Counted from the stretch's first letter, positions 26,441 through 37,513 are shown. The stretch: DNA of 61,213 bases from Candidatus Magasanikiibacteriota bacterium (GCA_903837125.1 CAILTG010000097.1:1-61213); one strand, 5' to 3'. Notes: generated by a model from the sequence alone, not told the origin. A program made the numbers and translations.

Positions 26441-26469
26441 ATTCTACACGTTTTTTGAACCAAGGTCAA
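26441..26469 (-). promoter_or_regulatory. predicted atp operon promoter
   Basis: The minus strand reads TTGACC, 17 nt, TAGAAT, with TG two nt upstream of the -10. The -10 ends 21 nt before the atpZ ATG. Confidence 0.55.
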
Positions 26470-26609
26470 GAGTAATTTTTATTTGAGGTGTGAATAAACC
26501 CGGCTACACTAAAAAAGTTACGTCGGACAAGGTTGTAGCCTGGGTTGAGCAAAATAATGATGTATTAATAAATTAGTGTTATTTGTGTTTTTATTTGTGG
26601 AAAAAAAGC

Positions 26610-26638
26610 TTGACAAAAGCCTTATTTTGTGCTAAGGT
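26610..26638 (+). promoter_or_regulatory. cassette A promoter
   Basis: Perfect TTGACA (26610-26615), a 17-nt spacer ending in TGC (extended -10), then TAAGGT (26633-26638). Confidence 0.55.
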
Positions 26639-26644
26639 CAGAAT

Positions 26645-26663
26645 ACGCGATTTCCGCGTGGTT
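26645..26663 (+). promoter_or_regulatory. cassette A conserved 5' palindrome (operator or 5'-terminal stem-loop)
   Basis: ACGCGATTTCCGCGTGGTT starts 6 nt after the -10. The ACGCG/CGCGT arms match the equivalent element in cassette B. Confidence 0.5.
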
Positions 26664-26691
26664 GTGTGCCTTTCTTTCAGGGAGAATGTCC

Positions 26692-27186
26692 ATGAAAAAG
26701 CCCCGAACCACCACCCCCCCCCGGACCCCGGAGCCGATCTTCAAGGGCACGTTCAAGTGTGCCGACGGCACCGTGGCTCTCGTCCTGGCGTTCGTGTCCA
26801 AGTACGCGACGCACAATGAGATGCCGGACAAAACGCAGGTCCTGCGGGCGATCAAGGAGGCGAGGTGCTCGATCGGTCCCTTGTCGGCCCAGAAGTTCCG
26901 TGACAACAGGGCGGCTGTCCCGTCCGACTTCTTCAAGGATGGGTTCCACTTCCCCGCCGCGTTGCGCGACGACGGAAGGTCGTGGACCCACCTGACCAAG
27001 CTGGACGGCCCGTGGGTGGAGCACGGCGGCGGACTCGGCGACGCGGTCCACAGCGGCGTGCTCTTCGTTCGATTCCTCGACGAGCTCGATGGGGAGGGCT
27101 GCGACCTCCTCGTCATCGACGAGAGAGATCCGGCGCTCGTCCTCGCCCCCATCGCCGACCCGTTGCCCGCGTCCGTCCCGACGTAG
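26692..27186 (+). CDS. GC-rich hypothetical protein A (164 aa)
   Basis: The ATG lies 7 nt after SD AGGGAG (26679-26684). Almost every codon ends in G or C. The protein is MKKPRTTTPPRTPEPIFKGTFKCADGTVALV... and matches no family I recognise. TAG stop at 27184-27186. Confidence 0.8.
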   Translation: MKKPRTTTPPRTPEPIFKGTFKCADGTVALVLAFVSKYATHNEMPDKTQVLRAIKEARCSIGPLSAQKFRDNRAAVPSDFFKDGFHFPAALRDDGRSWTHLTKLDGPWVEHGGGLGDAVHSGVLFVRFLDELDGEGCDLLVIDERDPALVLAPIADPLPASVPT

Positions 27187-27211
27187 GCCCCGACCCCGCG
27201 ACCTCAAGTCG

Positions 27212-27334
27212 CTCCACAGTACGCCTCCCGGCGTACGGCAGGTGTGGAGCGCGAGACGCGTTCCTGTTCTTTGTACCTGGGAGCTCCTGCCGCTCCCGAC
27301 CATAATCATTTTAAAAGCTTGAAATGATTTAGAA
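27212..27334 (+). ncRNA. cassette A conserved structured 3' element
   Basis: The outer stem CTCCACA/TGTGGAG encloses GTACGCC/GGCGTAC. It is followed by hairpin CGCG-AGA-CGCG, GTTCC, and hairpin GGGAGC/GCTCCC with a loop containing TCCTGC. The element ends in the block CCATAATCATTTTAAAAGCTTGAAATGATTTAGAA. Confidence 0.5.
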
Positions 27335-27373
27335 CAAAAAACCTTTGTAGAAATACGAGGGTTTTTTGTTTTT
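27335..27373 (+). terminator. cassette A intrinsic terminator
   Basis: A-tract, then a ~14-bp stem including G-U pairs with a GAAA loop, then TTTTTTGTTTTT. Confidence 0.65.
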
Positions 27374-27380
27374 ATGTCTC

Positions 27381-27409
27381 TTGACATTTCCCATTTTTTC
27401 CGCTACCCT
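27381..27409 (+). promoter_or_regulatory. cassette B promoter
   Basis: Perfect TTGACA (27381-27386), 17-nt spacer, TACCCT (27404-27409). The geometry is the same as in cassette A. Confidence 0.5.
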
Positions 27410-27415
27410 AAATTC

Positions 27416-27435
27416 ACGCGAAATTCCGCGTGGTT
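27416..27435 (+). promoter_or_regulatory. cassette B conserved 5' palindrome
   Basis: ACGCGAAATTCCGCGTGGTT starts 6 nt after the -10. With the preceding C it forms the near-perfect 18-bp palindrome CACGCGAAATTCCGCGTG. Confidence 0.5.
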
Positions 27436-27460
27436 TTTTGGTATTCATCAGGAGGGTTCC

Positions 27461-27952
27461 ATGAGAATCACGTTCAACGTGGAAGACGACAAGGGGCGGA
27501 AGGACGGCGAAAGGTTCGAAATCTTCGCCATCCAGATCAGGAACGAGTTCGGCGACCCGGACCTGAACAGGATTGTGCTCTGCCGCGACGAGGCGGAGTG
27601 CAGACGGGTCCTCGAGGCGCCTGTCGCCAAGGACACCCGCAACTGGGGCCTCCTGCCGGAGCAGTACAGCCTGCGCCCGGCGACCAAGCAGGAGATCCAG
27701 GCACTGACCCCCGATTCGAACCTCGGGACCGTGGTCTCGTGCTACCTGCTCAACGTGATGCTCGACTGGCCGTCCGAGCAGCAGGCAGGACACCACTTCA
27801 TCAGGCACGTACGTCACCTCGCGGACGGGAGCGTCGTCCACGTGCCGGACCCCAAGCCGTACCTGGCGCCGTGGGTCGTCGCCGAGGCCCCGACGTCGAC
27901 GAACCTGACGGAGGACCCGTACGACCGCGGTGCCTGGCAACCCGACCTCTAA
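27461..27952 (+). CDS. GC-rich hypothetical protein B (163 aa)
   Basis: The ATG lies 4 nt after SD GGAGGG (27451-27456), and the frame is GC3-saturated. The protein is MRITFNVEDDKGRKDGERFEIFAIQIRNEFGDPDL... with a His-rich patch HHFIRHVRH. No family recognised. Confidence 0.8.
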   Translation: MRITFNVEDDKGRKDGERFEIFAIQIRNEFGDPDLNRIVLCRDEAECRRVLEAPVAKDTRNWGLLPEQYSLRPATKQEIQALTPDSNLGTVVSCYLLNVMLDWPSEQQAGHHFIRHVRHLADGSVVHVPDPKPYLAPWVVAEAPTSTNLTEDPYDRGAWQPDL

Positions 27953-27960
27953 CAGGTTGC

Positions 27961-28085
27961 CTCCACAGTTCCCGCCTCACGGCGAGACGCAGGTGTGGAG
28001 CGCGACCAAGTCGTGTTCCATTCGTTCCTTGACGGGTTCCTGCACCCCGTCCATAATCATTTTAAAAGTTTGAAATGATTTAGAA
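27961..28085 (+). ncRNA. cassette B conserved structured 3' element
   Basis: Same architecture as in A. The outer stem CTCCACA/TGTGGAG encloses CGCC/GGCG, followed by CGAC-CAA-GTCG, GTTCC, and GACGGG/CCCGTC with a loop containing TCCTGC. The final block CCATAATCATTTTAAAAGTTTGAAATGATTTAGAA is 34/35 identical to A. Confidence 0.5.
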
Positions 28086-28119
28086 AACAAAACCCACCAA
28101 ATAAGGTGGGTTTTGTTTT
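28084..28119. terminator. cassette B bidirectional intrinsic terminator
   Basis: Perfect 15-bp stem AAAACAAAACCCACC / GGTGGGTTTTGTTTT, with an A-tract on one side and a T-tract on the other. Confidence 0.8.
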
Positions 28120-28137
28120 AAAAAATAATAAATTTTA

Positions 28138-28174
28138 ATTAAGATTAAGATTGTGTCTCGTTCTTAATCTTAAT
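28138..28174 (-). terminator. hairpin overlapping the tatD stop codon
   Basis: 13-bp stem ATTAAGATTAAGA / TCTTAATCTTAAT built from reiterated AAGATT units. Confidence 0.55.
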
Positions 28175-35852: not shown

Positions 35853-36522
35853 TTATTACTACAACAAACTCCCCTTTTTCTAATACTTTCATTTCTAAAA
35901 TTTCTTCTATTGTGCCACGATAAATAGTCTCAAATTTTTTAGTTAACTCACGGCAGACGCACAGCAGTGCGTCTCTACCCAACACTGCATTCAATTCATC
36001 CAAACACTTCTTAATTCGATGAGATGATTCATAAAACGCTACTGTATATTTTGCTTGAGCGACTTCTCTAAAAAATGTTTGTCTGCCCTTTTTATGTGGA
36101 GGAAAACCCATGAAAACATACTTATCAGTTGGGAAACCTGATATAGAAAGAGCAGTAATAACAGCTGATGGTCCAGGTACAGGTATAATTGTTAAATTAT
36201 TAAATTGTTTAATGGTTAACTGGTTTATTAGTTTATTACCAGGATCTGAAATACCCGGTGTACCTGCATCGGTAACCAAAGCAATATTTTTCCCTTCAAC
36301 CAATAAACTATTAATCCAATCAACTTTATTATCCTCACTGTGCTGGTGATAACTGATTAAAGTTTTTTTTATTTCAAAACGAGCTAATAAACCACTAGTT
36401 ACCCGGGTGTCTTCACACAAAATTACATCCACACTCTTTAAAACTTCTAAAGCGCGTAACGTAATATCACCGAGATTTCCAATCGGAGTAGCAACGATAT
36501 ATAATTTACCTATTTCAGACAT
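35830..36522 (-). CDS. rsmI: 16S rRNA (cytidine1402-2'-O)-methyltransferase
   Basis: 230 aa, tetrapyrrole-methylase fold, with N-terminus LYIVATPIGNLGDITLRALEVLKSVDVILCEDTR. Confidence 0.9.
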   Translation of the reverse strand: MSEIGKLYIVATPIGNLGDITLRALEVLKSVDVILCEDTRVTSGLLARFEIKKTLISYHQHSEDNKVDWINSLLVEGKNIALVTDAGTPGISDPGNKLINQLTIKQFNNLTIIPVPGPSAVITALSISGFPTDKYVFMGFPPHKKGRQTFFREVAQAKYTVAFYESSHRIKKCLDELNAVLGRDALLCVCRELTKKFETIYRGTIEEILEMKVLEKGEFVVVISPDFNRR

Positions 36523-36557
36523 GGATATATTTTACTAAAAAATCACTAAAAAAGCAA

Positions 36558-36583
36558 GAAAACCAGCCGGGTGGCTGGTTTTC
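36558..36583 (-). terminator. intrinsic terminator after the ferredoxin gene
   Basis: GAAAACCAGCC / GGCTGGTTTTC stem followed by a T-run on the minus strand. Confidence 0.75.
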
Positions 36584-36604
36584 TAATCTTTAATTTTCAG
36601 TCTT

Positions 36605-36790
36605 TTATTCTTCAATACTAATACACTGTACCGGACAATTATCATGTGCATCATTAAGTGCTTCTTTGCTATCCCCTGGTGGATTAATTTCCACAGCCTT
36701 ACCATCTTCATCCATTTTAAAACTAGCTGGCGCTAAAATAGTACAAGTGGCGCAGCCAATACATTTTTCTTTATCAACTTTTGTTTTCAT
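36605..36790 (-). CDS. small 4Fe-4S ferredoxin
   Basis: 61 aa with CIGCATC ... CP cluster ligands. Confidence 0.85.
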   Translation of the reverse strand: MKTKVDKEKCIGCATCTILAPASFKMDEDGKAVEINPPGDSKEALNDAHDNCPVQCISIEE

Positions 36791-36850
36791 AGCATTAATT
36801 TAAACTAATTTATACTGATTAAAAAATTACTCATTTGAATCCGTATTAAT

Positions 36851-37513
36851 CTATGTTCCGTAGTATTTTTCACTATAAAACCTTATCAGTTGTTCTATTT
36901 CTGGTATTGCCTCTGGAGTAGCTACTCCAACTTTAAGACGCTTCTGAACGTCGACCAAAGTTTTAGCGCCTTCCAGCACAGCTTCTTCAATATCATGATC
37001 AGTAATTTTTAATTTTTCATCAACTATTTTAGCTCCTTCAGTAATAATACGCGAATGTTGGCCCGTACTACGAAAATAATCATTAATTGCAGCACGCAAG
37101 GCTTTGTCGCCAAGCACTGAGCAGTGAATTTTGCGGACTGGCAAACCACCCAAGCGTTTCATAATATCCTGAGGTTTTATTTTTAAAGCTTTTTCTAAAG
37201 TCATTCCCCCTTTTTCCGTAACCATTACTGAAAGCATAGAGGTAGAAGCAATAGCCGAGCCACAACCAAAAGTCTGCCATTTACATTCTTTTATTTTTTC
37301 AGTTTTTTTATCAACTTTAATCCAAATTACCATTTCATCTCCACAAGCTGGACTACCAACTCTACCCATACCATCGGCTTGATAATTTTCTTCTTGCCCA
37401 TTAATTAACAAATTTTTTGGATTAAAAAAATGTTCTTTGACAATGTCAGAATACAGCCAAGCGGTCCCGGAACCGTCTCTTCCATGAATTGTTTGTTTTT
37501 GTATTTTTGACAT
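36851..37513 (-). CDS. nifU: NifU/IscU-like Fe-S scaffold with C-terminal extension
   Basis: Scaffold cysteines occur in GSPACGDEM, FGCGSAIAS and IHCSVL. 220 aa. Confidence 0.88.
   Translation of the reverse strand: MSKIQKQTIHGRDGSGTAWLYSDIVKEHFFNPKNLLINGQEENYQADGMGRVGSPACGDEMVIWIKVDKKTEKIKECKWQTFGCGSAIASTSMLSVMVTEKGGMTLEKALKIKPQDIMKRLGGLPVRKIHCSVLGDKALRAAINDYFRSTGQHSRIITEGAKIVDEKLKITDHDIEEAVLEGAKTLVDVQKRLKVGVATPEAIPEIEQLIRFYSEKYYGT

Follow-up and report, generated by a model that had tools for sequence, protein, structure and literature searches.

Two unrelated GC-rich orphan genes in a shared expression frame between tatD and the atp operon of a Candidatus Magasanikbacteria chromosome

How can two unrelated genes acquire one common expression frame? 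The puzzle is posed by a locus in a contig of 61,213 nucleotides assigned to a Candidatus Magasanikiibacteriota bacterium (GCA_903837125.1 CAILTG010000097.1:1-61213), the whole of which was analysed and is called the window below. Between tatD and the atp operon lies an island (26610-28119) of two tandem plus-strand units, cassettes 1 and 2. Each consists of a promoter, a 5' stem-loop, a Shine-Dalgarno (SD) sequence, one orphan open reading frame (ORF1 or ORF2), a hairpin-rich 3' untranslated region (UTR) and a terminator. These features match those of a first-pass annotation of the same DNA almost to the base. Bacteria of the Candidate Phyla Radiation (CPR) are uncultured, very small and probably live as symbionts, and little is known of the ways in which they acquire accessory genes and bring them to expression; here, an insulated frame carries unrelated orphans. 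The explanation that we tentatively prefer is that foreign orphan genes of high GC occupy an expression frame for accessory genes that is native to the lineage and present here in two old copies, at a hot spot of the replacement type.

The island is set apart by its composition. In 200-nt windows, GC content was 0.62-0.73 between 26700 and 28000 as compared with 0.24-0.40 in the flanks, and no other 1-kb bin of the window exceeded 0.41. The first-pass annotation had described this flip from AT-rich to GC-rich DNA between the atp promoter and the tatD terminator, and had proposed quantifying GC and GC at third codon positions (GC3) in sliding windows. Both measures bear the description out, as they do its account of two plus-strand ORFs of almost equal length (164 and 163 codons) in which nearly all third positions are G or C. 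At codon positions 1, 2 and 3, GC was 0.63/0.47/0.90 in ORF1 and 0.65/0.41/0.90 in ORF2, as opposed to 0.40-0.49/0.30-0.35/0.22-0.26 in three host genes. A pattern of GC3 >> GC1 > GC2 together with a balanced amino-acid mix was seen only in the plus-strand frames of ORF1 and ORF2; the long antisense and alternative ORFs in the island are Arg/Gly/Ser-rich shadows. The shift extends to the proteins, in which Gly, Ala, Arg and Pro make up 0.28-0.33 of residues (0.20 in the host) and Phe, Tyr, Met, Ile, Asn and Lys 0.18 (0.31 in the host).

The origin of this composition is less easily assigned to a lineage. The first-pass annotation had suggested a high-GC donor with actinobacterial-style codon usage. 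The GC-rich composition stands; the actinobacterial style does not, since AGG and AGA account for 10 of the 23 Arg codons in the two ORFs and CTC outnumbers CTG among Leu codons, 17 to 11, which is not typical of actinobacterial codon use. AGG alone supplies 7 of 23 Arg codons, as against 3 of 132 in the host. Overall, codon and amino-acid composition would have been shaped in a genome of 65-68% GC.

Neither protein belongs to a recognizable family. Searches of Pfam, PHROGs, PADLOC, NCBIfam and PDB sequences yielded nothing real: no PHROGs match had an E value below 0.08, and no PADLOC anti-phage defence family was reached at E <= 1. In a 5.8-billion-cluster collection and in a full HMMER search of 1.84 billion representative proteins, the only real matches were near-identical ORF2 copies from the same lake population; ORF2 belongs to a cluster of three proteins from ENA and Logan assemblies. 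An additional HMMER match, P0004 (E = 4.9e-4), was rejected as spurious, as it spans the artificial ORF1-ORF2 junction of a concatenated query. No homologue of either ORF from outside its own population was found in a 15-billion-protein collection or, by tblastn, in phages. AlphaFold2 without an alignment gave predicted local distance difference test (pLDDT) scores of 34 and 42. The homology searches and structure prediction that the first-pass annotation had called for are thus consistent with its failure to recognize any family. It had also noted no similarity between the two ORFs, and this too is confirmed: the best BLASTP E value was 0.58, in-register nucleotide identity was 0.335 (null, 0.315 +/- 0.021) and the global protein alignment had z = -0.5. 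With no residual similarity in DNA or protein, hidden homology of ORF1 and ORF2 was rejected.

ORF1 occurs in no form in the 15-billion-protein collection, and ORF2 is represented there from short contigs only, not from the 61-kb contig. These genes are probably overlooked, or assigned to the wrong strand (minus strand, 26622-27387 and 27329-27940), by gene callers that have the AT-rich genome as their training set.

Structured RNAs appear as GC-rich intergenic regions in AT-rich genomes. The GC-rich bodies might accordingly be large structured non-coding RNAs whose ORFs are by-products of high GC, and the long ORFs in several frames and the lack of a confident protein fold would fit. Such a reading is scarcely credible, given that strict three-base periodicity occurs only in the frame that follows the SD and ATG, that the amino-acid composition is balanced and that no Rfam family reached the gathering threshold anywhere in the window. 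These data indicate that ORF1 and ORF2 are protein-coding genes.

Upstream, the two cassettes share one series of elements (Table 1). Six nucleotides past each -10 hexamer lies the palindrome ACGCGA..TTCCGCGTGGTT, a 12-mer present exactly twice in the window without mismatch. From there, 15 nt (cassette 1) or 14 nt (cassette 2) lead to AGGGAG or AGGAGGG, followed by ATG. Transcripts are predicted to start ~7 nt beyond the -10, at or beside the stem-loop. In cassette 2 a T-run follows this stem-loop, which therefore also scores as an intrinsic terminator. CGCG..CGCG inverted repeats flank each ORF on both sides. The first-pass annotation had likened the promoters to the sigma-70-type atp promoter. 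The likeness holds for the perfect TTGACA-17-TAnnnT architecture beside TTGACC-17-TAGAAT of atp; it is limited at the -10, where both hexamers match TATAAT at only three of six positions. Because of this weak -10, our promoter scan missed both cassette promoters. The sequence ATTTTGTGCTAA is common to the cassette 1 promoter and the promoter at the syntenic position of a relative, L019.

An imperfect GC-rich hairpin lacking a T-tract (26499-26548, ACCCGGCTACA...TGTAGCCTGGGT) separates the divergent atp and cassette 1 promoters. Its fold was not better than shuffled controls. The idea that the stretch upstream of cassette 1 is the remnant of a third 3' module was rejected, as it has no homology to the modules.

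Downstream of the ORFs, each 3' region of ~170 nt comprises ~110 nt of GC-rich hairpins (H1-H3), a 26-nt AU-rich hairpin (H4) and the terminator. There are five hairpins per region, and both regions fold far better than their shuffles (z = -7.97 in cassette 1, -7.95 in cassette 2). The blocks GCAGGTGTGGAGCGCGA and CCATAATCATTTTAAAAGYTTGAAATGATTTAGAA each occur exactly twice (~0 expected by chance). In H1, CUCCACA/UGUGGAG encloses a small inner hairpin. In H2, the 3' strand varies from one cassette to the other and yet remains complementary to an invariant strand, GGAGCGCG. The H3 stems, GGGAGC/GCUCCC in cassette 1 and GACGGG/CCCGUC in cassette 2, are identical at two of six positions per side and retain the loop UCCUGC. 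H4 has an 11-bp AU-rich stem, and 25 of its 26 nt are identical between the cassettes. H1 and H2 compete for one common strand. The terminator stems of the two cassettes are unrelated in sequence; each stands between an A-tract and a T-tract, and this arrangement makes the terminators potentially bidirectional. The G-U pairs of H2 and H4 form in plus-strand RNA only, which argues that the module acts as RNA. In Rfam, the best match fell on the terminator hairpins: csRNA, scoring 38.3 bits where the threshold is 57. Pairing of the 5' with the 3' UTR was discarded as a candidate interaction, the calculated duplex being no better than shuffled controls.

When translation is continued past the stop codons, TAG for ORF1 and TAA for ORF2, no further stop is met for 46 codons in cassette 1 (27187-27324) and 41 in cassette 2 (27953-28075), and both open frames end at a common ...HNHFKSLK-stop inside H4. 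This coincidence is plausibly due to chance, because GC-rich DNA is poor in stops and the frame agrees in one case out of three; covariation in the stems of the module points to RNA rather than to a read-through tail. The cassette 2 module also contains a promoter-like TTGACG-17-CATAAT (28029-28057) directed into H4 and the terminator, which could yield an RNA of ~70 nt. The CATAAT is kept in cassette 1 as well; the matching -35 is not.

The two frames are thus related in a mosaic fashion: blocks of 12, 17 and 18 nt in the flanks are 100% identical, as is nearly all of H4, and the ORFs are unrelated. Promoter spacers are identical at 9 of 17 positions and discriminators at one of six. This near-random identity outside the conserved blocks indicates that the frames are old paralogues with constrained motifs rather than products of a recent duplication. 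The first-pass annotation had seen a collinear scaffold (TTGACA-17-TAnnnT, palindrome, SD, ATG, 3' hairpins, terminator) with identical or near-identical blocks separated by unrelated sequence; element by element, we find the same. Neither a repeat of ORF sequence nor a third copy of any conserved block was found in the window.

To which genome does the island belong? The best TatD matches, at up to 69% identity, were from Candidatus Magasanikbacteria metagenome-assembled genomes. Pfam screening took in ~50 of the ~60 host ORFs on the contig. The screened ORFs were housekeeping genes (aminoacyl-tRNA synthetases, GreA, PBP2, MreBC, the atp operon, TatD, RsmI, NifU/IscS and an ABC exporter) or had no Pfam match, and none encoded an integrase, transposase, reverse transcriptase, tyrosine recombinase or phage protein. 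The window contains no tRNA gene. The surroundings are AT-rich, minus-strand and SD-poor, as previously described: 61 of the 63 long ORFs of the window lie on the minus strand, and a weak SD-like 4-mer precedes four of the 63, one of these four being an antisense shadow inside the island.

The site was then compared among 80 related loci, as the first-pass annotation had recommended. In ~55 of them tatD is followed by the atp operon, with a gap of usually 50-150 bp that reaches 300-3800 bp in many. The window's cassettes were present in none of the 80; the site was empty or held other genes. In at least seven relatives (L007, L010, L011, L013, L019, L030 and L059) it is occupied by a different single cassette of the same build, in the same place and orientation. 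Their promoters have TTGACA (TTGATT in L007 and L010), 17 nt and a TAnnnT-like -10, as does a cassette of L012 located elsewhere. These cassettes, and similar islets at other positions, comprise a short 5' hairpin, AGGAGG, a small unrelated ORF, a GC-rich hairpin right past the stop and an AT-rich terminator. GC3 of the cassette ORFs was 0.65-0.71 in L011, L030 and L059 and 0.45-0.49 in L013 and L019. An SD sequence is present in both window cassettes and in nearly every islet read, that of L040 being uncertain, as opposed to a strong SD in 38 of 593 core-like ORFs of the relatives (6.4%, an upper bound, as any of the first four candidate starts was accepted per ORF). Overall, the tatD-atp gap is an insertion hot spot, and SD-led, GC-richer orphan cassettes recur in these SD-less genomes, a context absent from the first-pass annotation. 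That annotation had called the cassettes foreign in composition and translation signals; this holds for ORF composition, and the frame of promoter, SD and terminator is host-type.

The island also occurs outside the 61-kb contig. Four contigs of 714-1234 bp (L001-L004), from four separate assemblies, are 99.6-100% identical to the window: one derives from a Logan assembly and three from ENA assemblies, of which two bear the label BUCK21-1. Taken together, they extend from within ORF1 as far as the 3' module of cassette 2, the AT-rich inter-cassette junction included. The host gene atpF was found on a short contig of the same study as well. BUCK21-1 is most likely the stratified-lake dataset of Buck et al. 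2021 (PMC8121793), the text of which contains no sample accessions and mentions no spike-in. As four independent lake-metagenome contigs carry the same tandem pair, the pair is neither a laboratory artefact nor a planted benchmark sequence. We conclude that the island is a genuine natural part of the chromosome of a freshwater, uncultured member of Candidatus Magasanikbacteria (Patescibacteria/CPR).

These contigs, together with the same-build cassettes at the site in relatives, largely refute an artificial or chimeric insertion, one of the origins that the first-pass annotation had left standing. It is extremely unlikely that an assembly chimera, contaminant or laboratory construct was misjoined into a Magasanikbacteria contig. 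The layout does resemble an engineered, insulated expression cassette, and the outer junctions occur in this contig only, the independent contigs carrying no host gene. However, the insert lies exactly between the terminator and the promoter of a syntenic locus, which would require two precise false joins, and four independent assemblies, from lake samples with no reported spike-in, contain the tandem pair, AT-rich inter-cassette region included. Moreover, the relatives with same-build cassettes in the same place come from unrelated studies, the cassette 1 promoter resembles that of L019, and there was no plasmid or phage match, plasmid blastn giving chance matches on the AT-rich terminator only.

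Population variants are few: 27405 A>C, in L001, and 26783, 27822 and 27850. The first alters an invariant A, the second base of the cassette 2 -10. The other three lie within the ORFs and are all non-synonymous. Any of these variants may be an error of a low-coverage assembly.

The identical blocks could have a role in DNA exchange. In a dedicated gene-cassette system, new for CPR, the 5' palindrome and the 3' blocks (H1/H2 and H4) would serve as recognition sites, and the ORFs would be inserted or swapped either by a recombinase whose gene lies elsewhere or through recombination within a pool of units that share identical ends. Several features fit: the mosaic of identical flank blocks around unrelated ORFs, the near-equal ORF lengths, the tandem array in one orientation, the inverted repeats on both sides of each ORF, and the fact that short metagenome contigs end at the repeated blocks. 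The blocks were not encountered again, however. The H4 block had no match in GTDB species-representative genomes (596 Gb), and neither H4 nor H1 had one in IMG/VR; the window cassettes were not detected in the relatives' loci (blastn; nhmmer on 1.14 Mb), nor were antisense-module peptides, a proxy for a DNA search, in the protein collection. The 5' palindrome had three matches in IMG/VR, where we estimate ~10 by chance, and the one inspected lies in a high-GC coding sequence. JGI metagenomes gave five chance matches to the H1 pattern, in coding DNA or an oriC-like region. In addition, no recombinase, transposase or reverse transcriptase was found among the screened host ORFs, there are no R''/R' cores of the type found in integron attC sites, and the G-U pairs indicate a function at the level of RNA rather than DNA. 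We therefore consider such a system distinctly improbable. A cassette-type recombination or mobile array had also been put forward in the first-pass annotation: the mosaic pattern agrees with it, and attC-like sites, terminal repeats, a recombinase and further cassettes were not found.

The relatives bear on another explanation, namely that a special, fast-evolving class of Magasanikbacteria genes has its GC-rich, SD-led build natively and by selection, and that this build is not the trace of a recent transfer. GC codons, SD and hairpins would be kept for a different regime of mRNA stability or translation, such as very stable messages or messages that survive AU-directed RNases. Two pairs of syntenic islet orthologues are informative. 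The L030/L059 proteins are 57% identical, as compared with 83% for TatD and 97% for AtpB, and the L047/L040 proteins are 35% identical, as compared with 87% for TatD. In both pairs, GC3 is 0.65-0.71 (0.33-0.50 in tatD and atpB) and ~53% of codons at conserved residues are identical. These pairs show that the islets are inherited vertically and evolve fast and that their GC3 is kept high. The lineage-wide SD contrast between core genes and cassettes, the orphan status of nearly all such ORFs, and the combination of old frames with a GC3 still at 0.90 in the window also favour selection. Nevertheless, we hold it to be an unlikely explanation. Codon positions 1 and 2 and the amino acids are shifted too, as a GC-rich mutational background would cause. 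A GC3 of ~0.7 in the sister species could stem from ~0.95 at acquisition before their split, by rough decay reasoning rather than computation. Finally, the use of AGG for 7 of 23 Arg codons fits neither the host (3/132) nor any obvious selective aim.

The full GC-rich imprint, amino acids included, makes capture from a high-GC source the simplest origin of the ORFs. Accordingly, of the proposals in the first-pass annotation, recent acquisition from such a donor is the best reading for the ORFs: composition and absence from relatives agree with it, and the donor was not found among 15 billion proteins. Judged as a genomic islet, the pair differs from the host in composition and codon use (GC3 of 0.90 versus 0.22) and is missing from relatives, and no homologue was found in a plausible donor lineage.

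Several observations weigh against capture into an old native frame, and account for our caution in preferring it. There is no known donor, the searches of 1.84 billion representatives and 5.8 billion clusters having returned only same-population ORF2 copies and one spurious match. The shift in GC starts within a few codons of the ATG, and inter-cassette homology is back ~20 nt past the stop; this occurs twice, and an ordinary transfer mechanism does not account for such exact replacement of an ORF two times. The frames look ancient, with unconstrained positions saturated, and the ORFs have not drifted towards host composition, so that they must either have arrived very recently or have had their GC kept by selection. 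The retention of a GC3 of 0.65-0.71 in sister-species islets, in which conserved residues have a changed codon in about half of cases, likewise fits selection rather than recent arrival. The absence of a Pfam family from 9 of the 10 cassette or islet ORFs tested in relatives would be unusual for random bacterial transfer. Lastly, the outer chromosome junctions are supported by the 61-kb contig alone.

Under capture, the tatD-atp gap would be an accessory-gene slot that related species fill with different small genes. The ORFs would most likely have been taken from some unsampled donor of high GC (a phage, mobile element or partner organism, for example) rather than from a typical actinobacterium, and exchange would most plausibly have occurred by DNA uptake followed by recombination through the conserved blocks of the frame. 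Each autonomous unit would be driven by a host-type sigma-70 promoter with a strong -35. The stem-loop at the 5' end probably protects the mRNA and, in cassette 2, perhaps also attenuates transcription. The strong SD would supply a translation start signal that the host's own genes do not use. Judging from their predicted structures, the three GC-rich hairpins and the AU-rich H4 are probably barriers to 3' exonucleases or a regulatory switch, and the bidirectional terminator would shield each unit from the adjacent one and from tatD, which is convergent. In this way, the frame would equip a GC-rich foreign ORF for expression in an AT-rich cell whose own genes lack SDs.

The locus may have broader implications. 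Throughout the lineage there are two translation classes, an SD-less core and SD-led, hairpin-flanked, GC-richer accessory cassettes. If capture is correct, the island is a clean natural example of an SD-less, AT-rich genome rendering foreign genes expressible; if selection is correct, it points to an undescribed split in mRNA handling. The proteins are presumably accessory or interaction factors, and as fast-evolving orphans they are candidates for functions in host interaction or conflict. A further conjecture, which we rate as very improbable, is that the 5' and 3' modules are a reusable CPR frame for interchangeable effector ORFs in which GC codons and a strong SD would be selected for a translation or decay regime separate from that of the SD-less, AU-rich core; in the extreme case, and by analogy with T-DNA, they would be adapted to the machinery of a partner cell, GC-rich and reliant on SDs, that ultimately expresses them.

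Table 1. Coordinates of the cassette features and of the genes and signals that border them (positions counted from the first nucleotide of the window).
Feature	Position	Strand	Basis
atp operon promoter, TTGACC-17-TAGAAT; left edge of insertion site	26441-26469	minus	promoter scan; equivalent conserved in relatives
Cassette 1 promoter, TTGACA-17-TAAGGT, TGn just upstream (extended -10)	26610-26638	plus	regex scan; relatives' build
Cassette 1 5' stem-loop, ACGCG-ATTTC-CGCGT + GGTT, at or next to predicted transcript 5' end	26645-26663	plus	fold; block identical in both cassettes
Cassette 1 SD AGGGAG and start codon	26679-26694	plus	sequence, SD scan
ORF1, orphan, 164 codons, GC3 0.90	26692-27186	plus	ORF calling, codon-position GC
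Cassette 1 3' UTR module	27200-27329	plus	alignment, fold z = -7.97, blocks present exactly twice
Cassette 1 H1 (CTCCACA/TGTGGAG, inner hairpin)	27212-27249	plus	fold
Cassette 1 H2	27246-27264	plus	fold
Cassette 1 H3 (loop TCCTGCC)	27279-27297	plus	fold
Cassette 1 H4 (AU-rich, conserved)	27304-27329	plus	fold
Cassette 1 intrinsic terminator (A-tract, 19-bp stem, T-tract)	27331-27372	plus	terminator scan, fold
Cassette 2 promoter, TTGACA-17-TACCCT	27381-27409	plus	regex scan
Cassette 2 5' stem-loop, CACGCG-AAATTC-CGCGTG then T-run; terminator/attenuator-like	27415-27439	plus	block match, fold, terminator scan
Cassette 2 SD AGGAGGG and start codon	27450-27463	plus	sequence, SD scan
ORF2, orphan, 163 codons, GC3 0.90	27461-27952	plus	ORF calling, codon-position GC
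Cassette 2 3' UTR module	27944-28080	plus	alignment, fold z = -7.95
Cassette 2 H1	27961-28000	plus	fold
Cassette 2 H2	27995-28021	plus	fold
Cassette 2 H3 (loop TTCCTGCAC)	28031-28051	plus	fold
Cassette 2 H4	28055-28080	plus	fold
Cassette 2 intrinsic terminator (A-tract, stem, T-tract)	28084-28119	plus	fold, sequence
tatD terminator hairpin; right edge of insertion site	28140-28173	minus	sequence
tatD ORF	28170-29030/29036	minus	Pfam TatD_DNase E = 4.7e-74

Some further observations concern the site and its relatives. A TGTG(T/A)ATAA motif lies ~20-25 nt upstream of the atp -35 (window 26486-26499, GGTGTGAATAAAC) and is kept at the equivalent position in L007, L010, L013, L015, L019, L022, L030 and L059. 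Read on the atp strand it is TTATNCACA, the classical DnaA-box consensus. As there is no turning point in the cumulative GC skew of the window, the motif does not mark oriC; it could be a regulatory site common to the divergent promoters. A second hot spot occurs just upstream of rsmI in relatives (L012:3073-4300, L047:2468-3037 and L040:3866-4462). The genes there are GC-rich (GC3 0.66-0.76; 0.76 in L012) and SD-led with their own promoters, and that of L012 encodes a Cys-rich, secreted or lipoprotein-like protein of 337 residues. The corresponding gap of the window (36522-36851) is of ordinary composition. In three loci, L047:9230-10844, L050:9261-10884 and L055:1934-3598, an enlarged tatD-atp gap contains extra atpB-, atpE- and atpF-like genes, a second, partial ATP synthase cluster, in place of a small cassette. 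Loci L008 and L009 both lie on the 58.6-kb JAAZJX010000069.1, which has tatD-atp twice, in opposite orientation and with identical match statistics, and may be a palindromic assembly artefact. Many metagenome-assembled genomes recorded as 'uncultured Gammaproteobacteria bacterium' (L005, L011, L013, L014, L019 and others) have a Magasanikbacteria-like TatD (up to 69% identity) and the same synteny; their names look wrong.

Finally, we compared the pair with known systems. We found no described system in the literature in which a duplicated 5'/3' RNA frame carries unrelated ORFs of GC3 0.90 in a CPR genome. A diversity-generating retroelement target was rejected, there being no ORF repeat in the window and no reverse transcriptase among the screened ORFs. 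An insertion sequence or miniature inverted-repeat transposable element was likewise rejected: inverted words shared by the two flanks do not exceed 7 nt, and no transposase was found in the same screen. The longest direct word between the flanks is the 9-nt TAATAAATT (~0.2 expected by chance, by our estimate). In type I toxin-antitoxin systems the toxin is a hydrophobic protein under 60 residues, as against the apparently soluble proteins of 163-164 residues here, and the promoter scan found no minus-strand promoter for an antisense RNA inside the units. Some relatives' cassettes (L007, L010 and L059) do encode small hydrophobic peptides.

Integron cassettes, and clusters of attC sites lacking an integron integrase (CALINs), resemble the island in being tandem, same-orientation arrays of small orphan ORFs of variable content, each followed by a conserved structured element. 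Here, by contrast, several separate hairpins, with G-U pairs, follow one another in the 3' element, and each unit has its own promoter, SD and terminator, unlike promoterless cassettes expressed from Pc. The attC cores (RYYYAAC...GTTRRRY, 45-135 nt apart) were absent by regex from both strands of 26561-28160, R'' matches occurring only within ORF2. No tyrosine recombinase that could be the integrase IntI was found among the screened ORFs, although CALINs lack IntI too. On the grounds of attC cores, IntI and promoterless state, identity with an integron cassette or CALIN was rejected.

Phage morons are self-contained promoter-ORF-terminator units of deviant composition, often with orphan cargo, that sit between conserved genes left undisturbed. 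The cassettes have this form, a promoter and terminator around a single ORF, as predicted at the sequence level. Unlike morons, the pair is not in a prophage: its contig carries housekeeping genes, with no phage gene in the Pfam screen, and tblastn to phages was empty. In addition, the two units share an elaborate 5'/3' frame, and their GC3 is 0.90 versus 0.22. Agrobacterium T-DNA (transferred DNA) also has translation signals and codon composition out of keeping with the genome that carries it; the analogy ends there, as the island has no border repeats, transfer machinery or evidence of export.

At the RNA level, the predicted 5'-end stem-loop and the stable GC-rich hairpins past the stop recall mRNA-stabilizing UTR elements, namely 5'-terminal stem-loops and 3' hairpins like repetitive extragenic palindromes. 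The H3 loop, UCCUGC, is complementary to a CAGGAG-type SD, as in the anti-SD motif of icaR-type 3' UTRs. The cassettes differ from these elements in having neither 5'-3' pairing above shuffled controls nor an Rfam match, and the corresponding roles would be theirs by analogy. With respect to the site, the closest resemblance is to flexible genomic islands and hypervariable replacement sites: the genes found at the tatD-atp position vary from species to species, many of which have none there, and exchange through conserved flanks proceeds without mobility genes. What distinguishes the present locus is that the exchanged unit is not a multi-gene island but a single small gene set in a stereotyped expression frame.

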